Below are positions 26,096 to 49,229 of a stretch of DNA of 64,000 bases, one piece after another. The position numbers and the translations under genes were made by a program. Positions within the stretch are counted from its first letter, which is position 1. Each line of letters begins with the position of its first letter. Location: the IMG/VR virus record IMGVR_UViG_2565956721_000002; one strand, given 5' to 3'. This DNA is from a virus. Lineage: Duplodnaviria > Heunggongvirae > Uroviricota > Caudoviricetes. The notes under the pieces were generated by a model that saw only the letters and a program-made list of their open reading frames with translations, did no database searches and was not told the origin of the DNA.

Positions 26096-26175
26096 GCTGG
26101 CCTGAAGCATTCACCACGGTAGGAATTGTGATGGCGGCAGCACTGGGTTTGTATTCAATTTGTCGCTGGTGGTAA
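26092..26175 (+). CDS. small hydrophobic peptide (27 aa)
   Basis: ATG overlapping upstream stop (ATGA) with strong AGGAGGTG RBS; MSWPEAFTTVGIVMAAALGLYSICRWW. Confidence 0.45.
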   Translation: MSWPEAFTTVGIVMAAALGLYSICRWW

Positions 26176-26177
26176 CG

Positions 26178-26411
26178 ATGGGAAAAATAACTTTTGTAGT
26201 CGAATTTGAGGATGGCAAAGAGCCACCTGTTAGCGCCAATCTTGATGTTGCTGGTGGCAGGCTTGTTTCGGTTCTATTTGGTGACTACCGAGATGACTTC
26301 TTCCAACCAGAAGAAGTTGATGTAGTGCGAGAGGCATTAAACGAGTTAAGTGTTGATAACGATGATGCTCATGCGGAAATCATCCAAAAAATGGAACTGC
26401 TAACTCACTAA
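26178..26411 (+). CDS. hypothetical acidic protein
   Basis: internal ATG 26178 (GGTGGT upstream) of track ORF 26160..26411. Confidence 0.4.
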   Translation: MGKITFVVEFEDGKEPPVSANLDVAGGRLVSVLFGDYRDDFFQPEEVDVVREALNELSVDNDDAHAEIIQKMELLTH

Positions 26412-26459
26412 ATTATCAATTATGGTGCTATCACCTACGACACCGAGAGAAAATTTATA

Positions 26460-26582
26460 ATGTCAAAAGTAAATGTTTTGATTTTTTCAGCAATTGTTGG
26501 CTTTGGTTTTACTGCCGGAGTGCAGATTTATATTACGTGGGAAAAAATCATCAACTACGCATGGAGTTGTTTTATTAAGTGA
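26460..26582 (+). CDS. small hydrophobic peptide (40 aa)
   Basis: MSKVNVLIFSAIVGFGFTAGVQIYITWEKIINYAWSCFIK; AT-rich; followed by the 26590 gene. Confidence 0.4.
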   Translation: MSKVNVLIFSAIVGFGFTAGVQIYITWEKIINYAWSCFIK

Positions 26583-26589
26583 GGTAAGT

Positions 26590-26883
26590 ATGTGGAGAGG
26601 TAATAGTCATGGCAAAAGCCAGATGATACTTACCGAATATCAGTTTGACCATAAAACCAATAAATCACGTTCAGTATATTTGCTTCGGCACAATAGCCGC
26701 GTAAGGAATACCGTGCTGGAGCAAAATCTGACTGTTGAAATAGATAATTACGGGGGCTTCAAGCCAACAATTTCGCTTGATGATTTTCCTCGTGGTTTAA
26801 GCGAAAGAGAAGCAATGCTGAAATTAGCAGAATGGCTACAAAGATTAAGCATTGCTATTGAAGATAACTGGTCTGAACCTTAA
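26590..26883 (+). CDS. hypothetical protein
   Basis: internal ATG 26590 with GAGG RBS of track ORF 26494..26883. Confidence 0.4.
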   Translation: MWRGNSHGKSQMILTEYQFDHKTNKSRSVYLLRHNSRVRNTVLEQNLTVEIDNYGGFKPTISLDDFPRGLSEREAMLKLAEWLQRLSIAIEDNWSEP

Positions 26884-26889
26884 ATTTAT

Positions 26890-27264
26890 ATGATGACACT
26901 AAAACATTTTCTTGACCGCCCATTATGGGCGGCAGCCGCAGGCTATGACTTTAATTATATGGATTGCATGTCTTATACCGCCAATGCATACGACTATTCC
27001 TTCAGTCTGCTGCTTAATTCTTTAAGAATATTGCCGCAAACAGAAGTTGGAGAGCTTCATTTATGGCTATTGGGCTTTATCGCGGCTGGAGTTGGTATTG
27101 CTGTATGGCCTTTTATTTTCTGGCTGGTGGCTGTTGTAGTGTGGTTTAAGTGCAAGACGTACCGGAGAAAGTATTTCTTAGGTGATGGAATGACTGATAT
27201 TGCCAAAATGAACATTGAAAAATGGACTAAGGAATGTGAAAAGAAATGGCGCAAAAAGAAATGA
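26890..27264 (+). CDS. membrane protein
   Basis: 124 aa; hydrophobic LWLLGFIAAGVGIAVWPFIFWLVAVVVWF then basic tail. Confidence 0.4.
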   Translation: MMTLKHFLDRPLWAAAAGYDFNYMDCMSYTANAYDYSFSLLLNSLRILPQTEVGELHLWLLGFIAAGVGIAVWPFIFWLVAVVVWFKCKTYRRKYFLGDGMTDIAKMNIEKWTKECEKKWRKKK

Positions 27265-28178
27265 CCAGAATCACTGAAGAGCGTATATCAGAGATTATTT
27301 CCCGTATCGAAATGTATGGTCACGGTGCTGGATATACGGCAGATGAAGTATTGGCACTTGCCCAAATGGCTTTGGCGGCTTGCAAAGATGATAAAAAAAT
27401 GAAGTTTATCGACTTGTTAGTGAAGGAACTGCCTAAGTGCGGCGGGTGGCCTGATGGAATGAGTTATTGTTACCTACCCAGTGTCAATTTAATGGCACCA
27501 TGCGCGACTTTTGCTTTTGGCTCAGACCACAAAAAAGACACTTTCTTTGGGCGCAATTTTTGTTGTGAGATTGAGCTTCCAATTGGTGACCTTGATAGCG
27601 ATGAATACCAGTCAGTTGTCACTCGCGAACAATACGAATCAGCTCTCATAGCGTCGCAGAAAGTCGAGTTCAATGGTGATGAACTTGAAAGTAAGACTTA
27701 CAGGTTGGATTTTGGGCAATGGCTGGAACAGCAACGCGGGAAAATCGATGTGGACTGTGGTTGTGTGTCCACTGAAACATTCATGCACTGGCTGCGGGTA
27801 GCTTACGAGGCTGGCAACTATCCGGATATTCCGGATAGTTCGGTGCCAGCACCAGGAAAGGGCGTCACCGGTGAACGTATCCGAATTAAGCCGCATGTTT
27901 ATCGCGAACTGGTTAACCGTCTCCACGATACAGCGATCAAGTGTGCTGGCACCCAGCAATTACGAGAAAGAATTAGCCGTGTTTTGGGCGACGTTATTAC
28001 ACCAGATCATCATAAACAAGCCGAGAAAAGTGGCCTGGAAAGGTGTCACCTTGAGGCGGCATTAAACATTAAGCCGGGGCATACGCTTGGCATTATTGAT
28101 GCACTATTGGTTCATAAGATGGCCAGGGCTTTATTGCCGCTGGTGGATGCTGGCGATACAAGCGAGGGTGAAGTATGA
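27246..28178 (+). CDS. hypothetical protein
   Basis: 310 aa, no recognisable motif. Confidence 0.45.
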   Translation: MAQKEMTRITEERISEIISRIEMYGHGAGYTADEVLALAQMALAACKDDKKMKFIDLLVKELPKCGGWPDGMSYCYLPSVNLMAPCATFAFGSDHKKDTFFGRNFCCEIELPIGDLDSDEYQSVVTREQYESALIASQKVEFNGDELESKTYRLDFGQWLEQQRGKIDVDCGCVSTETFMHWLRVAYEAGNYPDIPDSSVPAPGKGVTGERIRIKPHVYRELVNRLHDTAIKCAGTQQLRERISRVLGDVITPDHHKQAEKSGLERCHLEAALNIKPGHTLGIIDALLVHKMARALLPLVDAGDTSEGEV

Positions 28179-39910: not shown

Positions 39911-40552
39911 ATGGATAAGAAAATATGCGTTGTTTCGATGAGCGTCGGCAAACCGGCGTCAATGACTGCTGCATGGATCAACAACGAGCTGATAATGGCT
40001 GAGCGGACCAGCTACCCTGAACGCCGCCGCGATATGGAACTCCAGCTGCTGCGCGAATTGCGAGAAAAAGAGGAAAAGGGTTTTATCGTGCTGGTGGAAG
40101 AGGAAAACAGCTTTATTACTGGTCGAGTTGGCCAGCGTGTAAGGTTGCGCGATCCCTTCATGAACGGCAGGCCGGTACTAATTGAGGCAATGCAGATTTA
40201 TAAGGAGCTGGAACGCCAGAAAGCAATCAAGTTACCGCGCAAGGAATCCGGCAAATACATCCTCCACCAAAGCATCTTCGATTCCGAACACGATAAAAAA
40301 GGCGATGAATTTTTCAACATCAACTGGAGCGAAATAACGACAGAGCATGTTCTGACGTTACTATGTTGCTTTGCGACGGAATACAACAACGTTGCCAGCG
40401 CCGACTACATCAGGGCAATGGCTTGTGAAGTGGATAGTCGTGATGACTCATCGCTGATAGCGTCATATATAAACATCATCAAGAAAACTCAAATTATGGG
40501 ATGCGCTAGAGTTCCTCAAGGAATACTCACCGGAAAGAATAATATTCTATAA
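39911..40552 (+). CDS. hypothetical protein at the P1 mat (particle maturation) position
   Basis: internal ATG 39911 of track ORF 39884..40552; sits between ref and the cargo slot; preceded by a hairpin plus T-run at about 39870-39900; identity with Mat not verified. Confidence 0.45.
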   Translation: MDKKICVVSMSVGKPASMTAAWINNELIMAERTSYPERRRDMELQLLRELREKEEKGFIVLVEEENSFITGRVGQRVRLRDPFMNGRPVLIEAMQIYKELERQKAIKLPRKESGKYILHQSIFDSEHDKKGDEFFNINWSEITTEHVLTLLCCFATEYNNVASADYIRAMACEVDSRDDSSLIASYINIIKKTQIMGCARVPQGILTGKNNIL

Positions 40553-40595
40553 CCTACGAAGGTTATTTGTTACTTTCTGCGTAAACCCACAACTC

Positions 40596-40617
40596 ACCTT
40601 CCTAAGTTAAGGAAGGT
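40596..40617 (+). terminator. hairpin terminator between the mat-like gene and the cargo gene
   Basis: ACCTTCC-TAAGTTA-GGAAGGT followed by ATTTAT. Confidence 0.5.
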
Positions 40618-40649
40618 ATTTATCATGAAGTTTAGACATAAGCGTATTA

Positions 40650-41690
40650 TTACATGGGATTAACCACAACCTTTCCATATATATCAAGTTTTGATTGTAA
40701 TACGTTGAGGTGAGACAATTCTTTATTCGAACTAACTTTATCTAAAATTATATTTTTATCTTTTTCAGTCATGTTATACCCTAAGGTAATTTGCTTGAAT
40801 GCAGAAAAAGGAATTTTCTTTAAGTTAATTTCATGATAGTCATGAAAAACATCAGGATACTCATTTAATAGGCAATCATCAATCGATGGAGAGACAATGC
40901 TTCCTATTTTTCTCTCGCAATCAGCCAATGGAAAAATAATTCTACTTTCATTTTCAGGAAGCCACTCTTCACCTTTTGTATAAAGAAGCCTATTAATAAA
41001 AAGCTCGCGAACTGAATCTCGATTTAAGATCCCATGCAATGTATTATCTTTATTCTTTATATCTATATTCCTCGATGGCGCAGGATAGCCATTAAATCGC
41101 ACAGCGCCTTTATAATAGGTTACAGATGCTCTATCTTCTGGATTATAACTAACATCACACGGCCGATATATTTTGAAAAAATCGTGTGTTTCATCGAAAA
41201 CTACAGCAAACCCCTTTCCTATCGATGCATAATGAGTCCACATGTGTAGATTGCAATCACTTTTTGATAGAGAGAACACACCAAGATGACAGCTTACGGC
41301 TTCTACTAAATAATCGTTAAGGTACGTTACTATTTCTTGGAGTTTAGATTCATCATATGAATCCATTGAGGTAAAACCTTCATTGATTAACAAGTGTGGA
41401 AAATCCTCTCCGTATCGTTTCCCGCAAGGTTTTAAATAATACTCTAACTCTTGTATAGATGGGACATAAGATGGATCTCGTTGCATTTTCTTAAATTCAT
41501 TTCTAGCCCATGCGTAATCGGCTGGTGAAAATTTATTAAAAAATGGAAGAAGTCGCGACTCACTCGACGGATCATTAAGATACTTTGGTTGCGTTGCTCT
41601 AAAGAAACCATCCTCCAGACAAGATGTTCTAATGTGCATGCCCGGCCAAGGTTTATCCATATAACTCTCGCCTATATATTTAACTAACAC
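40650..41690 (-). CDS. DUF2971-like protein, AT-rich cargo gene in the slot occupied by res-mod in prototype P1
   Basis: 346 aa, GTG start is the first in-frame start; N-terminal LVKYIG...FRATQPKYLNDPSSE and central FSLSKSDCNLHMWTHYASIGKGFAVVFDE match motifs I associate with DUF2971; visibly AT-rich versus flanks; bounded by hairpins. Confidence 0.6.
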   Translation of the reverse strand: MLVKYIGESYMDKPWPGMHIRTSCLEDGFFRATQPKYLNDPSSESRLLPFFNKFSPADYAWARNEFKKMQRDPSYVPSIQELEYYLKPCGKRYGEDFPHLLINEGFTSMDSYDESKLQEIVTYLNDYLVEAVSCHLGVFSLSKSDCNLHMWTHYASIGKGFAVVFDETHDFFKIYRPCDVSYNPEDRASVTYYKGAVRFNGYPAPSRNIDIKNKDNTLHGILNRDSVRELFINRLLYTKGEEWLPENESRIIFPLADCERKIGSIVSPSIDDCLLNEYPDVFHDYHEINLKKIPFSAFKQITLGYNMTEKDKNIILDKVSSNKELSHLNVLQSKLDIYGKVVVNPM

Positions 41691-41711
41691 TGTATATCGA
41701 TCCTGTTGTTT

Positions 41712-41732
41712 AAGCCCATATCATATGGGCTT
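41712..41732. promoter_or_regulatory. perfect palindrome between lxc stop and cargo gene start
   Basis: AAGCCCATAT-C-ATATGGGCTT, about 22 bp upstream of the 41690 start; contains TATGAT; no flanking T-tract. Confidence 0.4.
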
Positions 41733-41742
41733 TAAATGATTA

Positions 41743-41991
41743 TTAATCAGCATTCAGAAGCAATGCGTTATCTATGATGATCTGCTCCCATTCTTCGAAT
41801 GCCCGATCGCGGACACCTTGGGGAACACTGTTAGTTTTGAAATCGACGACCGTCCGCCATTTCCCGTCCGGGCGGTACATGCGCAGAGCTTTACTTCCCC
41901 CTTCCCTGCGCACCTCAACGTTGTGCTTGTCAGCAAACTCTTGTAATGCTCGTAGCGTCCCATGCTTTACTGTGTAGTATCGCTTTTTCAA
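41743..41991 (-). CDS. lxc: small protein at the P1 lxc position
   Basis: 82 aa, last gene of the darB-ulx-lxc arrangement; 4-nt overlap with upstream gene; named by position and size only. Confidence 0.5.
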   Translation of the reverse strand: MKKRYYTVKHGTLRALQEFADKHNVEVRREGGSKALRMYRPDGKWRTVVDFKTNSVPQGVRDRAFEEWEQIIIDNALLLNAD

Positions 41992-42428
41992 GTTTTCTCT
42001 CCAGCCTGTGCTAAGGCTTCAACTTCCAAATCGTAAGACTCAAACTCATAGTCCTGGTCGTCAACCTCTTCAGGTACTGGCAGTAAATGCCAGGCTGAGT
42101 ATATCTGACCATTATCAAAACGCTCCTGGCTGTAGAGCGTCGCAGCTATGAGTGTCAGCGCCGGGCGGTCATAACGGTAAATTTTGCGAACGTCACGGTC
42201 AACGAGACGACCGAAATTACCATAACCGCGCTCCAGTAATAATTTTTTAATTTCCGGCCAGTATGGGCCATAGCTGCGGTACAGGCGGGGATTTTTCAGT
42301 AATCGCCCGCGTAGCCCTGACAGGAAGAAATCAACGTATTCGTCTTCTGTCTTTCCTAACAACGCTGTACGGAGTACCGCCTCAAGATATGTTTTATTCG
42401 GTTTTATTGTATCAGATAGTGTGGCCAT
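41988..42428 (-). CDS. ulx: protein at the P1 ulx position
   Basis: 146 aa immediately downstream of darB on the same strand; named by position and size only. Confidence 0.5.
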   Translation of the reverse strand: MATLSDTIKPNKTYLEAVLRTALLGKTEDEYVDFFLSGLRGRLLKNPRLYRSYGPYWPEIKKLLLERGYGNFGRLVDRDVRKIYRYDRPALTLIAATLYSQERFDNGQIYSAWHLLPVPEEVDDQDYEFESYDLEVEALAQAGEKT

Positions 42429-42461: not shown

Positions 42462-45400
42462 TTATGCGTATTGTTGGATGACGGCCAGAACGTCCGCCAC
42501 GTTGTGTTTTGTCTCGATAATCCACCAGTTACCCGGGAAATCGCTGTTCTTCGCCTTCGCTGGCAGCCAGCGAGCGCCGAATTTCGCCTTGATTGCGTCT
42601 TTCGCACGGAAAAGAACGCCTTTCATGCCTGAGGCTTCCTGAAGCCCAAATACCTCGCCAGCGGCGAATTTTGGTGCGTACATCATCTTCAGGTCGGCGG
42701 TGGATACGCGATAATTCAGACCAAGAGACTGAGCTATGCTGGTGGCATCACCCTGTATTGATGATAACTCTTCTTGTTTCTCGTTTCTGGCGGCAATTTC
42801 TTCCTCCGTGATGTTGCCAAGGGCCAGGTTTATCCGATCAGCGTCGGCCTGTTTCTCTTCATCGGTGCGCCCGGCAAGAACCGTGTTAATTCTCTGCAAT
42901 ATCTCCACATGATTCTTGCGCATGCTGAGCAATTCCGGCGTAACCTCGTTAAGATCCACCAGCCCAAGGATGGCAAGGTCGGAAAACATTGATACCAGGT
43001 TGTAGGTCATGCGATAGCTGAGTTGGCCATAGGCTGATGGCAACTGCACCGCATCCATTTGATAGGCATCCATAAATTTAGAGCCGTCGTTTACGACATC
43101 CGCAATTGCAGGTGTGATTTTCCCTGTGGTGGCGGCCTCCCTGATTGCTGTTACCCATGATTGAGTCAGTGCGGCGACTGCATGATTCAGATTGGCTTCC
43201 CGTTCTGCTGCGATGCGCGCGCTTGCTGAGTCCATTGCCTGCTTGATCTCGGCTTTATTGCTGTAAATGCCAATGGTGCCAAACTGTGCTGTGGTGATCT
43301 CATAATCTGACGCCCGGAACTCATGGGTACCGAAAATGGCATTGGTGACCTCAAGTTCAGAATCCCCGTTACGAGTAGCCCCCTGGCTTGCTTTCTCCGG
43401 CATTTTTGCGATCGCATCCGCTATTTTCTCCTGAATTGCTTCAGGGGATAGCGTATCTCCGTATGACGCGATTACATCGCCATAATTGGAGCCAAACAAT
43501 TCAACCAGGAATGTTTCTGCCGAACGGATCTGGCGGTTATTCCCTTCCGACATCATACCAAGCACCCATTTTGCAATTGACGACTTCAGCGCGCCGTCAC
43601 GGCGATCCGGGTAAACCGCATGCTTCAGTGGGGCCGTATAGGAACCAACAAAATCAATGCTATAGCCTGACTCTGTAGTCTGAACGCCGTATGAGTCAGT
43701 GATTTTGATCATGCCGCGCTGCTGGAAACGGTAGAAATCGTCACAGGAAATGATGTCGTTAATCCCGGCGATGGAGACGCCACCACTGATTTTCTGCATA
43801 ACAGCATCTTCATCGGGAGTTACATCAACCTGTTTATCCAGCGTCTTCACATCCCAGTTACCCGATTTGGTGCCTTTGAAGGTAAAGATGATCTCCACGT
43901 CTGCGCGCTGGCTGTCGAAGTCCAGCGACTTAATGCGAACGATATCACCGGCACAATCATAGTATTGGCCTACACGCCATGAGCGATCGCCGATAACAAG
44001 GAACTCATTCGCATGGTTAACCAGATCAGGATCAACATCCAGAATGCCTTTATTTATTGCATCCTCCACCAGCGGGCGCAGGCGTTTGATATCCGTCGCG
44101 GCCTTCTGAGTACGGTTCAATAATTTCTCATAGCGGGAGATGGCCTGAGAGATATTAGCCTTGCGCTGAATGGCGCTTTTCAACGACGCGCGATACTGTG
44201 CTAACAACATACGGTCTGTGTGATGGACGCTACCCCAGCGGGCTTTCCAGTCTGCGTTATCAGCTGCTTTGGCCATTACCGCCTGTTTGAATTTGGCGAC
44301 GTCGGCGGTGGTCTTTTCAAGTTCCGCTTTGCTTCGCTCCAATTCAGCGGTAAGTACCTCCACATCCTCACCAGCTGCGTGCTGCGCCTTGATGTAGTTC
44401 TGAAGGTCGATAGTAGCCTGTTCTTTCTGGCGAGCGCGTTTCGCAGCTTTCGCCTTATCCATTTGAACCTGCATCATTACCAGACGTTCGCCGTCATCCT
44501 TCGCGGTATACATCTGCATTTCGATCATGTCATTGGCGTCGGCGTTCTCCATTTCTGACTTATCTGAACGGAGGATATCGGAGATCCAGCCTGCTTTACG
44601 CTTCAGCGTCTTCAGTCGGTATTCATCGAAAGACCCCTTGCCGCAGTAGTAGTGAACGCGAACGCTTGCACGGTTGGAGCCAACTCGTGCACCGCGACCG
44701 TTACGTTGTGCGATACTGGCTGGTGTCCACGGCAACGTCAGGTGGTGGATATCCGTCGTTCCTCGATGCAGGTTGATACCCACCTCTGCCTTTTTGTTGC
44801 AGATGATGATCGGAGTCCGGCCCTCCTGGAAGTCGGCAGCAATCTTTTCCAGCCCACCCAGCGACATTTCATTTTGCTGCGCGATATAGGCGTCATACAG
44901 AGCCATTTGCTCGTTGTATTTCGCTATCTGTGCATCTGTTGGTTCATCCGGTAGCTCTTTCGGCGGTTTAACCGCTTTCAGTTTCTTACCGGTTTTACCT
45001 GCCTCGGCAACCGTCTGAGCATTCAGGATCCCCACCTTTGAAGGTTCAAGGTTAAGAGCATTGCAGATAATGCGCTTGAGCTTCTGGTGTTGCGTTTTTT
45101 CATCGGTGAAGATGATTTGCTTACCTTCCGGGAAAAACTCCTTCAGCGTGGCAATCAGCTTCGCGTATTTGGGCGTAACGGGGTGAGTTACGGTCTGTTC
45201 GTCAATGCCAAACTTGGCCAGGCGCTTATTCACTTCCTGCTCAAATGCTTCCGGTACCTGCAACTGAATAAACTCGCCCTTATCTATCAGGGAGTATTGC
45301 GATTGCTGCGTGATCGAATCATCACTGTCGTCGTCTTCGCTGGTGGCTTGTTTAGGCAAACTGTCCGCCAGCTGCTGCACCGCATCGGCGTACTCCGGCA

Positions 45401-48400
45401 GGAAACGATAGGTGATCCTGCGATAGTACAGGTCCATGTCAGTACATACGCGGTCCATATCCCTGATTATTGAGAAGATCGGACGGGCTTTCTCGTGCTC
45501 AATCACGCCGTCTTCATTGACCGAGGTCGTTACGCCATTGTTGGCTTTGGCTGCCGCTTCCGCCTGCTGACGCAATTCTTCATACGCCGCCAGTTGTTCT
45601 TCCGTAAGTGGTGCATCCTGCTGGTGTTCGTCCAGTTCCGGGATCTCCACGGTATCCTTAACGTCTTCCGCCGTTTTAAGCGTTGTCCAGCGATGGAATA
45701 TGCCGCGCAGCGCATCAAGGTTTTCAAAGCCCACCAGCGCCATTTTTTCTTCAACTTCACCGCTGATTTTCTGTACCGTTTCCAGCCTGGTCTTGCCGAA
45801 GAATTTAACGAAGTCATCAGGACCGTAGATCCCCATCTTCTGCCAGTATTCCTTCGGCAGCACATGAGAAAGCATGTTGTATGCATCGATCGGGGTGTTA
45901 ACGACTGGCGTTGCAGTCAGGAGAACCGGTCCGCGCCCACCATTCTTTTTCATCAGGTACGCGTTTTTAATTGCCATATCCCGCGCCGATTGCGCCACCG
46001 CGCTGGTGGGCAGATAGGCCAGTTGTGACGCTTCGCGACCATTTTTATAGCTATTGCGGTAGTTGTGACCTTCGTCAGCGATCACACTATCGAAGCCCAT
46101 ATCCTCAAAGTACGGATACTTCTCTGCTTTTTCGGTGCCGGTATCTGAATACTCCGACAATACCCGGCGACGCGCGGCCTCTTTGCGGTGGGAGTCGGAG
46201 TCCATTGCGCTGGCTACGCGCCCGGCGGCAACGAAGTCATAAAGCATATCCTGTGCATGCTCATCTACGGTGTCATCACGTAGCGGAATGCGGGCGTATT
46301 GTTCTTTGGTAAACACGACTGCACGGTAATTTGAGTGCGGGATCGCGTTCATCCGCGCCGTGATAGTGGCTTCATCTGCCAGTTTTAGGGCATCGCGCAT
46401 AACTGGAGTGCCATCAGTACCAAGAACAGGTTTACCGTTCTCATCGAGCACCGGCACCTGGCGAATCTGATCGCCATCCATCAGCACATCAAGACCGACG
46501 AACAGGTAGTTACTGAATGCCTCTTCACTCAGGAATTCTTTTGCTTCGTAATACCAGTTTTCCAGCACTGATTTAGGCACTACATACGCAGTACGGGTGG
46601 AGCGACCGTTCTCATAGTTGAACGCCTCAAGCGCCAGCGCGGTCGTAGTTTTACCCAGCCCGGTGCCGAAGCCCAGGATGCCGCGCCCATCTTCGGACAG
46701 TCGGCGCACTTCGCTATTCTGGTAATCAAATGGCTGGCGCTTACCGCTTAATCCCTTCAACCCAAGCGGATCGCCAGAGTGTTCATACGGGATATTGCTA
46801 TTGAACACATCGTTGTATTTGGCAACCAGTTCATCGTAGCGATCGTGCGTCTTGATCCACTTATTGAACTGGTCCTCAAGCAGTGCCATCTGCTCGCGGT
46901 AGCCGTTCGCCGTCGCGCTATCTTTGCCACCGATACGCGCACCATTGAGATACTTTTCCAGCTGTGCCGGGAACCCGGTCGCGTTTTCACCTGATTTACG
47001 GTCCCACTCGTAGCGGATCTCGCCTGTTTCTTTATCCTTGCGCTGGACGACACCGTATCGGTGCCCGACGAACAGGCCATCACCACCGTGATAGGTGTCA
47101 GAAACCATTTCGTCGCCTTCCAGCTGCACTGACTGCACATAGCGCAGATCCGGATAGCCCTTTTCCTGCAAAAACTCCAGAATGACGGAACGGTCGAACC
47201 AACGGCTATTGAGCTTAAACCGGATATTCTCTGCTGGCGTCTTGATGCGCTTCTCTTCGATCGCTGCCAGCTGATTAAGGACGTTGTTCTTTACTGGACC
47301 GTCGGGGAGCGTGGCGAGGAATTCCTGTTTTGGAGCCACTATCTCGTTAATGTCGCCGCTGGTGGCGCGGGCGAACGGAACAATCCCGCCATACGGTGAA
47401 ACCGCAATACCAGGAGTGCTGGCCAATAAATTAAGCAACTCTTCATCACTGGCTGGCAATTCGCCGGTAAACGCAAGGCGGAAATCATCGAGCTGGATTG
47501 GATCGCGGGTAAGATCGCTATAGAGATAACGCAGGGTGTCCTGATAGCTGGTGGAGTCATAACTGGCGCTGGAATCATGCGTAACCAGCTTTCCTGTCAG
47601 CTCGTCAGAAATAGTGCCATCCAGCTTAATTGCACCACGGAAAGCAAACCAGGCGCGCGCACCGCTTCCCGATAATTTAGCTATCGGACCGCGACCAGGG
47701 TTACCAAAACGGTCAATCTCTGCCTGCAAACGGGATACCAGAGAAAGGCGCTGCTGTTCGATTTGTTCAGCACTATGCCCGGCGGCCTTCATATCCTGAT
47801 ATTCAATTAACATCCGGCCAATCATCGCCCCACGATACAAGCGTTCACGGTATTTTTCAGGCTGGCTGTTAATCCAGTCCACCAGCTGCACCATATCGTC
47901 GCTGATTGATGTGGTGTACTTATCGCGGACATTTGCCATCTGGGTAAATGTCATACCGAGACGGCCTTCTGTTGTAGTCAGGTTACGCTGAAGAGCCTCC
48001 CAGCTATCCGCGCCATAACTGGCAGCATCAATTTTAAGTTCCTTCCCGGCATCAGCTTCAATCCAGCGACCACCAGCATATTTTTGCCATACGCCATTAA
48101 TCAGGCGCATTTCCCCTTCACCAACAACGTCTGCGGTCAGTGACGGTTCAGCCATATCGAGCAAAGACCAGTCGATACGGCTTTCGAAACGATGAATCAG
48201 CTTCGCTTTAAGAGCCTGGTTATCAATCTGACCGTCGGCACGAACCTCAATACGCCCCTGGAAGCCCTTTTCCTGGGTGCCATGAACAAACCGGCGGCCA
48301 TCCTTTTCAAACCACTTGCCAGAAATAAACGTTGGCCAAAGCACATTTGCCGATTCAAGAGTGCTTTCATCCACCAGGGGGATTTTCTCAGCCATCTCTG

Positions 48401-49229
48401 CCGGATGTTTGCGCATCAGCACCACATCAACGACTGTACTGGTCCCGTTTGCGTCAAAAGTACCGGTAGGCAAGCGGTGGGCACCAAGAAATTCAGCTTT
48501 CCGTGATAGGCGCAGGCGTAACCGCTTCATGTTTGAACCTGAAACAATGGACGGCGGCACAATCACGCACATGAATCCGCCTGGCTTTATCTTGTCCAGC
48601 ATGCGGAGCATGAAGTAAGAACCCATGTCCGTTTCTTCTGCGTAAGGCTTATCGATGTTGCGTGTGTTATCACGACCGCCGAACGGAACGTTACCCACAA
48701 CATGGTCGAATGAATCGTTAGGCGTGCTTATAGCCAGCTGTTCGAACGGGGAAATCTGTACGCTGTCTTCCGGGTGTAACAACTGGTTTATACGACCGGA
48801 AACACTGCTGATCTCAGTCGCGGTCATCACCGTACCAACCGGTTTTGTCTCATTAAAAACGCCGGTTCCCGCCGATGGTTCCAGAGTGTTACCTACGTCC
48901 GCGCCGTAGAGCTTCATGATCTCCCAGACACCTTCAGCGATCGGCTTTGGTGTGTAATATTCGGAGACGGACCCGCCAATGCCGCCTTCACCGGTGTACC
49001 CAGCCAGGATCTGGCGCTGTTCATCTGTCAGTGTCGCGCCGTCCACCAGCGAATTAAGCAAATCAATCGCCTTCTGATTCGCCTCCCGGCGTAGTCGGTC
49101 ATAGCTTTTGCCTTCCACCTTTTCCACGCCGTATCTAATCGGCGCTCGGTGAGATGTTATTGCCCTAATGTATTTCAATATTTCGCTGACACTTGAACAG
49201 CGAAACACCCCCATAGATAGCTTGTTCAT
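42462..49229 (-). CDS. darB: antirestriction protein DarB (N6-adenine methyltransferase fused to SF2 helicase)
   Basis: 2255 aa (P1 DarB length); AAGGA RBS; N-terminal MTase motifs (SAGTGVF, GNVPFGG); central helicase motifs (GFGTGLGKTT, IADEGHNYRN). Confidence 0.85.
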   Translation of the reverse strand: MNKLSMGVFRCSSVSEILKYIRAITSHRAPIRYGVEKVEGKSYDRLRREANQKAIDLLNSLVDGATLTDEQRQILAGYTGEGGIGGSVSEYYTPKPIAEGVWEIMKLYGADVGNTLEPSAGTGVFNETKPVGTVMTATEISSVSGRINQLLHPEDSVQISPFEQLAISTPNDSFDHVVGNVPFGGRDNTRNIDKPYAEETDMGSYFMLRMLDKIKPGGFMCVIVPPSIVSGSNMKRLRLRLSRKAEFLGAHRLPTGTFDANGTSTVVDVVLMRKHPAEMAEKIPLVDESTLESANVLWPTFISGKWFEKDGRRFVHGTQEKGFQGRIEVRADGQIDNQALKAKLIHRFESRIDWSLLDMAEPSLTADVVGEGEMRLINGVWQKYAGGRWIEADAGKELKIDAASYGADSWEALQRNLTTTEGRLGMTFTQMANVRDKYTTSISDDMVQLVDWINSQPEKYRERLYRGAMIGRMLIEYQDMKAAGHSAEQIEQQRLSLVSRLQAEIDRFGNPGRGPIAKLSGSGARAWFAFRGAIKLDGTISDELTGKLVTHDSSASYDSTSYQDTLRYLYSDLTRDPIQLDDFRLAFTGELPASDEELLNLLASTPGIAVSPYGGIVPFARATSGDINEIVAPKQEFLATLPDGPVKNNVLNQLAAIEEKRIKTPAENIRFKLNSRWFDRSVILEFLQEKGYPDLRYVQSVQLEGDEMVSDTYHGGDGLFVGHRYGVVQRKDKETGEIRYEWDRKSGENATGFPAQLEKYLNGARIGGKDSATANGYREQMALLEDQFNKWIKTHDRYDELVAKYNDVFNSNIPYEHSGDPLGLKGLSGKRQPFDYQNSEVRRLSEDGRGILGFGTGLGKTTTALALEAFNYENGRSTRTAYVVPKSVLENWYYEAKEFLSEEAFSNYLFVGLDVLMDGDQIRQVPVLDENGKPVLGTDGTPVMRDALKLADEATITARMNAIPHSNYRAVVFTKEQYARIPLRDDTVDEHAQDMLYDFVAAGRVASAMDSDSHRKEAARRRVLSEYSDTGTEKAEKYPYFEDMGFDSVIADEGHNYRNSYKNGREASQLAYLPTSAVAQSARDMAIKNAYLMKKNGGRGPVLLTATPVVNTPIDAYNMLSHVLPKEYWQKMGIYGPDDFVKFFGKTRLETVQKISGEVEEKMALVGFENLDALRGIFHRWTTLKTAEDVKDTVEIPELDEHQQDAPLTEEQLAAYEELRQQAEAAAKANNGVTTSVNEDGVIEHEKARPIFSIIRDMDRVCTDMDLYYRRITYRFLPEYADAVQQLADSLPKQATSEDDDSDDSITQQSQYSLIDKGEFIQLQVPEAFEQEVNKRLAKFGIDEQTVTHPVTPKYAKLIATLKEFFPEGKQIIFTDEKTQHQKLKRIICNALNLEPSKVGILNAQTVAEAGKTGKKLKAVKPPKELPDEPTDAQIAKYNEQMALYDAYIAQQNEMSLGGLEKIAADFQEGRTPIIICNKKAEVGINLHRGTTDIHHLTLPWTPASIAQRNGRGARVGSNRASVRVHYYCGKGSFDEYRLKTLKRKAGWISDILRSDKSEMENADANDMIEMQMYTAKDDGERLVMMQVQMDKAKAAKRARQKEQATIDLQNYIKAQHAAGEDVEVLTAELERSKAELEKTTADVAKFKQAVMAKAADNADWKARWGSVHHTDRMLLAQYRASLKSAIQRKANISQAISRYEKLLNRTQKAATDIKRLRPLVEDAINKGILDVDPDLVNHANEFLVIGDRSWRVGQYYDCAGDIVRIKSLDFDSQRADVEIIFTFKGTKSGNWDVKTLDKQVDVTPDEDAVMQKISGGVSIAGINDIISCDDFYRFQQRGMIKITDSYGVQTTESGYSIDFVGSYTAPLKHAVYPDRRDGALKSSIAKWVLGMMSEGNNRQIRSAETFLVELFGSNYGDVIASYGDTLSPEAIQEKIADAIAKMPEKASQGATRNGDSELEVTNAIFGTHEFRASDYEITTAQFGTIGIYSNKAEIKQAMDSASARIAAEREANLNHAVAALTQSWVTAIREAATTGKITPAIADVVNDGSKFMDAYQMDAVQLPSAYGQLSYRMTYNLVSMFSDLAILGLVDLNEVTPELLSMRKNHVEILQRINTVLAGRTDEEKQADADRINLALGNITEEEIAARNEKQEELSSIQGDATSIAQSLGLNYRVSTADLKMMYAPKFAAGEVFGLQEASGMKGVLFRAKDAIKAKFGARWLPAKAKNSDFPGNWWIIETKHNVADVLAVIQQYA

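Follow-up and report, generated by a model that had tools for sequence, protein, structure and literature searches.

Aristaios is a validated abortive infection (Abi) system that consists of a single DUF2971 gene, encoding 316 amino acids (aa), on the Lactococcus plasmid pUCCL641 (Grafakou et al. 2024, PMC11381338). Its action is Abi-like. It interferes with phage transcription, and no phage structural proteins are detectable (PMC13064643, PMC12967558). The DUF2971 proteins have been proposed to be a DarT/AbiGi-like family of ADP-ribosyltransferases (ARTs), with large helical inserts between strands 1 and 2 and between strands 4 and 5, a motif I signature of [R/H]x[D/T], and an ExE motif that opens the fifth core strand (PMC12522546). 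Here, a DUF2971 gene is described from a P1-like phage-plasmid, IMG/VR record IMGVR_UViG_2565956721_000002, of which a stretch of 64,000 nucleotides (the window) was analyzed. The gene lies between mat and lxc. In P1 this site has been published as RD-1 (P1 3,469-9,749, res-mod(IS5)) and described as a hot-spot at a boundary between DNA of average guanine-plus-cytosine (GC) content and AT-rich DNA, where other open reading frames (ORFs) replace res-mod (Venturini et al. 2019, PMC6906374). That study compared three elements and gave no catalog of the cargo (PMC6906374). A preprint survey of more than 1,500 P1/D6 elements gives type III restriction-modification, dGTPase, PrrC, and CapRel as the defenses and does not mention DUF2971 (10.1101/2025.09.12.675607).

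The mat-lxc slot of the window is occupied by a single gene that is predicted to encode a stand-alone protein with an ART fold, and the gene is probably an abortive-infection cargo. It is a minus-strand ORF of 346 aa with a GTG start, and it is the sole gene in the 1190 bp between the mat stop (40552) and the lxc stop (41743). The GC content of the ORF is 0.352, against 0.483 for the window, 0.477 for the 10 kb to the left, and 0.520 for the 10 kb to the right. Windows of 1041 bp have a mean GC of 0.484 (standard deviation 0.032). Only 0.5% of them are as low as the ORF, and all of these overlap it, which makes it the lowest-GC stretch of the 64 kb. The flanks have the order found in P1, with cre, c8, ref, and mat on the left and lxc, ulx, and darB on the right, according to the annotations of CP083412 and of P1 (NC_005856). 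The sequence-only reading made of this DNA before the present analysis had described the ORF, its AT-richness, the flanking order, and the membership in DUF2971, and each of these was borne out. It had also recognized the site as that of the P1 res-mod genes. This agrees with the annotations, and no Res or Mod homolog was found by tblastn in the window, in the whole of its relative ph681355, or within 10 kb in the ten other DUF2971 carriers. Nothing is annotated as res or mod in ph681355. The IS1 that the same reading placed in the P1 interval is actually an IS5 inside mod (the mod749::IS5 strain); IS1 lies in RD-2.

The closest relative of the window is ph681355 (CP083412), a phage-plasmid of Salmonella Typhi that is about 99.4% identical overall and 100% identical across the DUF2971 locus. 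The identical gene in CP083412 was assigned an ATG start at 41660 (336 aa) by the Prokaryotic Genome Annotation Pipeline. That start was rejected in favor of the GTG at 41690. The N-termini of homologs, MLVKYYGL, match (GTG)LVKYIGE in the window; the 346-aa ORF is therefore right, and the 336-aa call is probably truncated. The AlphaFold2 (AF2) model supports the GTG start as well, with a confident N-terminal beta-strand. The RefSeq copies of the gene are probably 10 residues short.

The protein matches Pfam DUF2971 (PF11185) with 28.3 bits against a gathering cut-off of 22 (E = 4.8e-6). The match covers residues 150-251 and all 89 profile positions (1-89), and all 43 of the aligned homologs match the same family. 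Four hidden Markov models (HMMs) of the PADLOC family PDC-S31 also recognize the protein, PDLC04994 (4e-16), PDLC04990 (2.2e-14, residues 118-324), PDLC04991 (1.1e-10), and PDLC04992 (4.9e-6); these matches were judged by E-value and not by the coverage thresholds of PADLOC. PHROG 1762, a group of unknown function, was matched at 8e-71. The NCBIfam search gave no match, and a literature search on PDC-S31 returned no papers. In a collection of 5.8 billion proteins, 839 member sequences make up the single tight cluster that contains the P1 version. The nearest relatives outside this cluster are only 50-54% identical, are about 350 aa long, and come from Klebsiella, Serratia, Vibrio, Shewanella, Salmonella, and others. 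An exhaustive HMM search returned, as clusters at 50% identity, 39 at E <= 1e-30, 1,317 at E <= 1e-10, and 8,537 at E <= 1e-3. The broad-family relatives of 290-320 aa align over profile positions of about 17-335. The P1 protein belongs to a small subfamily of a very large superfamily, whose members are mostly 260-320 aa. No housekeeping or structural homology was found in the family searches. The statement in the sequence-only reading that the function is unassigned is out of date, given the ART proposal (PMC12522546) and the validated Aristaios (PMC11381338).

The layout of the AF2 model matches the published description of a DUF2971 ART. In the model, a strand at residues 29-31 carries R31-A-T33, and it is followed by a helical insert of about 100 residues, a strand at 136-142, and the segment HMWTHY154AS. 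A second insert then precedes E246-N-E248, which opens a strand at 248-254. The motifs were assigned to strands by position and not by superposition. Conservation was assessed in two sets, 43 close homologs (the subfamily) and a broad set of 52 sequences that reaches 22% identity. R31, T33, Y154, E246, and E248 are invariant in the 43 homologs, as are P35, L38, N39, D40, E44, W243, and R250. In the broad set, D40, Y154, E248, and R250 do not vary, and at least 90% of the sequences keep R31, N39, E44, and E246. The conservation of W151 is complete or at least 90% in the two alignments. The KY...NDP..E and HMWTHYA segments, which had been picked out earlier from the letters of the sequence, correspond to residues 35-44 and 149-155 and belong to the best-conserved blocks of the family. 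The P1 subfamily therefore appears to possess an ART motif set (R/Y/ExE) of catalytic-type residues.

Resemblance scores of the AF2 model were 6.4 for yeast Tpt1, 6.0 for DarT of Mycobacterium tuberculosis, 5.6 for Thermus DarT, 5.4 for Escherichia coli DarT1, and 5.0 for Thermosipho DarTG. All of these are modest. Foldseek searches of the model against PDB and BFVD gave nothing below E = 0.2. Profile HMM searches of PDB, made with the subfamily alignment and with the broad 52-sequence alignment, gave no match at E <= 10. When the 43 members were compared with Pfam by hmmscan at E <= 10, with DarT/DUF4433, AbiGi, and other ART families in view, only DUF2971 and scattered noise were returned. 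The assignment of the DUF2971 protein as a putative ART is thus well supported. It falls short of proof because the scores are modest, the Foldseek and profile searches gave no significant match to structures, and no other ART family was found by HMMER.

The gene can be set beside several described systems. Like Aristaios, it is a single gene for a DUF2971 protein of about 300-350 aa. Aristaios differs in that it has a Gram-positive host and is carried by a plasmid, whereas the gene in the window is on a phage-plasmid. Moreover, the Abi-like phenotype of Aristaios has been demonstrated, and that of the window gene is a predicted one. A tblastn search of PLSDB gave no Lactococcus match at E <= 0.01. 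PDC-S31 is likewise a single-gene candidate, defined by its association with defense islands, and its four HMMs match the protein at 4e-16 to 5e-6. However, the best of these models aligns with residues 120-183 only, and the second with 118-324. The modeled fold resembles that of DarT. In contrast to DarTG, no DarG macrodomain antitoxin or other partner gene is adjacent. The protein also lacks HMMER-level similarity to the DarT family of Pfam and has helical inserts of about 100 residues and an extra C-terminal domain. The gene is not a DarTG system, because there is no DarG and no sequence match to the DarT family. EcoP1I res-mod is found in exactly the same slot and is also an AT-rich accessory cargo, and the two are presumably functional alternatives for protection of the lysogen. 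Res-mod, however, is a two-gene module of 5.2 kb that encodes a helicase-nuclease and a methyltransferase, whereas the window has one 1-kb gene with a predicted ART fold. The two are unrelated in sequence and mechanism, and there is no tblastn similarity between them. The DUF2971 locus itself is the RD-1 region of PMC6906374.

The content of RD-1 was tabulated with Mat as the anchor. From IMG/VR, 80 P1-like loci were fetched, and both anchors were present in 74. Clustering was applied to the sequence that starts at mat nt 525 and ends at the lxc stop, and the classes were annotated with Pfam and PADLOC. The 74 loci and the window fall into 14 sequence classes, which represent about 12 cargo types plus an empty form. 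DUF2971 was the cargo of 10 loci as well as the window. A solitary SIR2_2 protein of 434-435 aa (PDC-S25/ThsA-like, three sequence classes) was found in 14 loci, a RelA/SpoT protein of about 379 aa (PDC-S33, CapRel type, two classes) in 11, a GNAT acetyltransferase (two classes) in nine, type III res-mod of about 5.2 kb in seven, and a PIN_12 protein (PDC-S34) in five. A block of about 3.7 kb with an antirepressor, a helix-turn-helix gene, and JukA was found in three loci, a pair of YaaC and a nucleoside-deoxyribosyltransferase-like protein in another three, and a 135-aa lipoprotein in a further three. The remaining form is empty (nine loci, 147-157 bp). All cargos are AT-rich, with a GC of 0.35-0.43, versus 0.49 for the empty form. 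The orientation of the cargo in the slot differs between classes. DUF2971 and res-mod were never found together in the 74 loci. The mat-lxc interval is a cargo-swapping hotspot dominated by defense genes. A swapped defense or exclusion cargo had been proposed from the sequence; the swap is confirmed by this census, and the defense role of the gene in the window is a probable one.

SIR2_2 is the commonest cargo of the IMG/VR sample (14/74), with examples in L015 (10525-12044), L014, and L029. It has at least two diverged alleles (in PLSDB, 65 close and 57 at 80-90% identity), and its best PADLOC match is PDC-S25, followed by ThsA. Three types of cargo have no PADLOC match. These are the GNAT acetyltransferase of 201 aa, the lipoprotein, which has a glycine-rich C-terminal helix, and the YaaC-like protein of 346 aa that is paired with a nucleoside-2-deoxyribosyltransferase-like protein of 169 aa. 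They can be seen in L071 (10525-11514), L050, L020 (10525-12340), and L012 (10525-11223). By their position, the GNAT, YaaC-pair, and lipoprotein cargos are candidate defense or exclusion genes.

The boundaries of the module were defined by comparison with other P1-like elements (Table 1). Homology to most of them ends inside mat at about nt 524 of 642 (near 40435 in the window) and restarts exactly at the lxc stop codon, 41743 (lxc nt 1-3). The cassette of about 1.2 kb that had been described from the sequence corresponds to the 1190-bp interval, but the unit that is exchanged is slightly larger, since it starts inside mat. The length of the module is 1308 bp in 10 of the 10 IMG/VR carriers. 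Up to nt 524, mat shows 95-99% identity from element to element, and lxc is 95-100% identical among the P1-like loci. The last 38 or so Mat codons differ in allele from one cargo class to the next, with the length and several residues conserved and the DNA strongly diverged. These cargo-linked alleles suggest either crossovers inside mat or selection on the C-terminus of Mat. In this end of mat (40435-40552), the DUF2971 and lipoprotein classes diverge most from the majority form (ARQEPSLLSPLINII...).

Table 1. Features of the mat-lxc region and of the DUF2971 gene (positions in the window)
Feature	Position	Strand	Remark
mat (maturation control protein), left backbone anchor	39911..40552	+	annotated in CP083412, which is 100% identical here
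Exchanged variable module, 1308 bp, GC 0.35	40435..41742		mat 3'-end allele, hairpin, DUF2971 gene, and lxc-side hairpin
Hairpin with 8-bp stem and 6-nt loop, between the convergent mat and DUF2971 genes	40596..40617		terminator scan, + strand, then ATTTAT
DUF2971 gene, 346 aa, predicted stand-alone ART-fold protein	40650..41690	-	
Codons 243-250, WLPENESR	40941..40964	-	E246-x-E248 is the proposed ART motif III (ExE), start of strand 248-254
Codons 149-155, HMWTHYA	41226..41246	-	Y154 is proposed as the tyrosine of ART motif II; the Pfam DUF2971 model begins in this block
Codons 35-44, PKYLNDPSSE	41559..41588	-	conserved block
Codons R31-A32-T33	41592..41600	-	proposed ART motif I (RxT), strand 29-31
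Perfect palindrome with 10-bp arms, between the lxc stop and the DUF2971 start	41712..41732		read from the sequence
lxc (bof), C1 repressor modulator, right backbone anchor	41743..41991	-	"modulator protein" in CP083412, "Lxc" in P1
ulx (Ulx-like anti-restriction protein)	41988..42428	-	annotation in the P1 and P7 records
darB, 2255 aa, N-6 DNA methylase/helicase, defense against restriction	42462..49229	-	ORF and annotation

Two inverted repeats had been reported as bounding the cassette, and both are present. The hairpin on the mat side has a predicted RNA fold of -17.3 kcal/mol, with z-scores against shuffled controls of -4.3 (minus strand) and -2.8 (plus strand). It was found in the DUF2971 class only and is probably a two-way terminator. 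The palindrome on the lxc side folds with 9 bp paired and a 3-nt loop (-12.1 kcal/mol, z -3.4). As a recombination or boundary site it was rejected. Every cargo class has its own distinct GC-rich hairpin directly before the lxc stop codon, and the palindrome is therefore not a special recombination site. It is the DUF2971-class version of a terminator-like hairpin whose position is conserved. Because the gene is on the minus strand, this hairpin is on its upstream side, at a distance of 21 nt from the GTG.

The expression of the gene can be considered from the same region. An AGGA is located 10 nt upstream of the GTG. The annotated mod promoters of P1 abut or overlap the end of lxc. A manual comparison with the P2mod promoter of P1 at the lxc junction gave only a weak TTGCTT-16 nt-AATCAT in the window. 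No U-tract follows the palindrome on the minus strand. Since the gene has no good sigma-70 promoter and its upstream hairpin lacks a U-tract, read-through from the lxc promoters is a reasonable, inferred route of expression. The best sigma-70-like site of the region, at 41286-41314 on the plus strand (ATGACA-17-AATAAT, 10/12 matches), is antisense inside the DUF2971 gene. It may be due to chance; the region contains two promoter-like sites versus the 5.6 expected from shuffles, which is fewer than chance. Conceivably, the site could give rise to an antisense RNA that regulates the gene. There is no second ORF in the cassette, and no RNA partner, such as a type III antitoxin or a riboswitch, was found when 40300-42100 was compared with Rfam at E <= 1. 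Thus, the cassette has no visible antitoxin.

The gene is maintained and widely distributed. An intact ORF of 1041 nt with a GTG start is present in all 11 copies (the window and the ten IMG/VR carriers). These copies represent seven alleles with 24 polymorphic codons, 17 synonymous and seven nonsynonymous, and the crude ratio of nonsynonymous to synonymous polymorphism (pN/pS) is 0.11. None of the 24 polymorphic codons is at a motif residue. The gene is under purifying selection. In PLSDB, 708 plasmids match the flanks of the locus. When records with at least 80% of each module were counted, the DUF2971 cassette was present in 88, the EcoP1I-type res-mod in 65, this SIR2 allele in 65, and one CapRel-like allele in 21. 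The DUF2971 cassette is therefore among the commonest occupants of RD-1 and is at least as frequent as EcoP1I. The 90 PLSDB records that match the module belong to Escherichia (70), Salmonella (14), Shigella (4), and Klebsiella (2). The RefSeq records of dozens of plasmids already label the gene product a "DUF2971 domain-containing protein."

Homologs are also present outside of P1-like elements. In Serratia, a solitary homolog occupies the cargo end of a P2/HP1-like prophage, where it follows the tail-fiber genes and adjoins smpB. In Klebsiella, a homolog that is likewise solitary is found in a small chromosomal islet beside a 509-aa AAA_15/AAA_21/AAA_23 ATPase. No macrodomain gene was found near the Serratia or Klebsiella homologs. 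In the Serratia marcescens locus (L082, CP026702; 6170-7825 and 9686-12156), the homolog is flanked by a 551-aa protein and by proteins of 217, 256, and 347 aa. None of these four neighbors, which lie between the tail-fiber genes and smpB, has a Pfam match, and they may form a multi-gene accessory or defense islet. The Klebsiella ATPase has a convergent 221-aa partner that has no Pfam match, and the pair (L085 9785-12008) recalls two-gene ATPase defense systems. A distant DUF2971 gene, about 26% identical over residues 1-266, is present in approximately 120 plasmids of Klebsiella, Enterobacter, and Citrobacter of about 105-128 kb, for example in NZ_CP069855.1 (84110-84706) and NZ_AP022453.1 (41724-42320). 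The size of these plasmids and their typing as non-mobilizable suggest another phage-plasmid lineage.

The most probable role for the gene, by analogy with Aristaios, is that of a stand-alone abortive-infection gene that would use nicotinamide adenine dinucleotide (NAD) for ADP-ribosylation and would protect the lysogen from other phages. The steps of such a mechanism, from the catalysis and its substrate to the trigger, the autoinhibition, and the anti-phage phenotype, are inferred. The enzyme would be silent in the lysogen until it is met with a cue from a phage. On infection, the ADP-ribose of NAD+ would be transferred either to a nucleic acid or to some part of the machinery for gene expression. 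This could shut down phage transcription or protein synthesis, as reported for Aristaios. Because no antitoxin gene adjoins it, the activity is presumably restrained within the same polypeptide. The helical insert of about 80 residues (approximately 56-135), the C-terminal domain (approximately 255-346), or both could hold it off. Homologous recombination probably carries the cassette from one P1-like element to another, through crossovers that lie in the 3' end of mat and where lxc ends.

Several points weigh against this role. For the protein in the window and for every enterobacterial member, it rests on sequence and on a model, and the link to Aristaios is limited to shared Pfam membership. 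PDC-S31 is a candidate family that is not validated, and its best model covers only part of the protein. The GNAT, YaaC, and lipoprotein cargos of the same slot are not known defense genes, so that guilt by association with the hotspot is imperfect. The promoter scan found no convincing minus-strand sigma-70 site upstream of the gene. The gene follows lxc, ulx, and darB on the same strand, and the hairpin between them has no U-tract; co-transcription is thus possible, and the gene may be expressed with genes that serve the phage rather than the host.

A more specific proposal, which is doubtful at present, is that the protein is a self-regulated ART that acts on nucleic acid and needs no antitoxin. 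The insert and the C-terminal domain could directly detect a component of the phage and thereby unleash a DarT/Tpt1-like catalytic core on phage DNA or RNA. If this is true, the protein would amount to a DarTG or CmdTAC with sensor and effector in one polypeptide. It would also rank with the most common immunity cargos that P1-like phage-plasmids carry in clinical E. coli, Salmonella, and Shigella. As an alternative, the protein could be deployed by P1 together with its Dar anti-restriction operon.

It is unlikely that an ART-like fold is used here for a different chemistry. The protein could be an NAD+ glycohydrolase that depletes NAD+ in the manner of SIR2 or TIR proteins, an RNA enzyme of the Tpt1-like 2'-phosphotransferase type, or a binder that is not catalytic. 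However, the invariant ExE, together with the arginine and the tyrosine, fits the sites of transferase-type ARTs (PMC12522546). The phenotype that was reported for Aristaios is also a block in phage transcription or protein production.

A second unlikely role is that of an ART that serves the phage and is made together with lxc, ulx, and darB. Such an enzyme would modify components of the host or of competitors to the advantage of P1. It could be used for host takeover, for anti-defense, or as an extension of the Dar anti-restriction set. The position directly downstream of these genes on the same strand, the hairpin without a U-tract, and the lack of a good promoter fit this role, and the neighbors ulx and darB have anti-restriction functions. 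The ART fold is used by phages for host takeover, as in Alt, ModA, and ModB of T4, which provides a precedent. However, the other occupants of the slot are mainly defense genes, and some elements have none, which sets the slot apart from the Dar core; the varying orientation of the cargo also argues against the role. Close homologs are found in bacterial chromosomes outside of phages, such as the one in the Klebsiella islet by the ATPase pair. The only DUF2971 protein that has been tested is a host-protecting Abi gene of a plasmid. Among the viral protein structures of BFVD, the Foldseek search found none that resembles the model.

A competition or addiction module appears to be quite improbable. 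Such a module would be a toxin-like ART that excludes plasmids or phage-plasmids, or that stabilizes the element post-segregationally in place of the addiction role of res-mod. In P1, res-mod is counted among the functions for plasmid stability and addiction (PMC6906374), which favors this explanation. The frequency of the cassette does so as well, as DUF2971 is the most frequent of the cargo types counted on PLSDB P1-like plasmids. ART toxins such as DarT arrest growth, which would also suit a module of this kind. However, the cassette has no visible second component, with neither an antidote gene nor an RNA partner that Rfam can detect, and ph681355 already possesses phd-doc. Finally, a decaying or functionless hitch-hiker in a recombination hotspot, which could be suggested by AT-rich foreign DNA that has neither an assigned function nor a recognizable promoter, is very improbable and is effectively refuted by the intact copies and the low pN/pS, as well as by catalytic-type residues that are invariant across a family of thousands of clusters and by the spread of the cassette over 88 plasmids in four genera.

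Elsewhere in the window, the second lowest-GC patch (about 26150-27500, GC of about 0.39) contains the small ORFs 26160-26411, 26494-26883, and 26890-27264. The last of these has a hydrophobic, membrane-like segment. This patch may be another accessory insertion.

The locus is not new in kind. The gene carried a DUF2971 annotation, the family had an ART prediction and one validated member, and RD-1 had been published. What is added here is a census of RD-1 cargo in which DUF2971 is among the most frequent, a corrected start codon, the exact boundaries of the module, and the R/Y/ExE set of the subfamily. Current concepts are unchanged, and a known pattern is filled in. The census, with its roughly 12 cargo types, extends the comparison of three elements in PMC6906374. 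Clinical E. coli, Salmonella, and Shigella commonly harbor P1-like phage-plasmids, which spread genes for extended-spectrum beta-lactamases; ph681355 carries blaCTX-M-15. To know which immunity cargo each element carries helps to predict the outcome of phage therapy and of competition between mobile elements. The DUF2971 family comprises about 8,500 clusters at 50% identity and has one tested member. An enterobacterial DUF2971 gene on a genetically tractable phage-plasmid would be a convenient model in which to find the target and the trigger.

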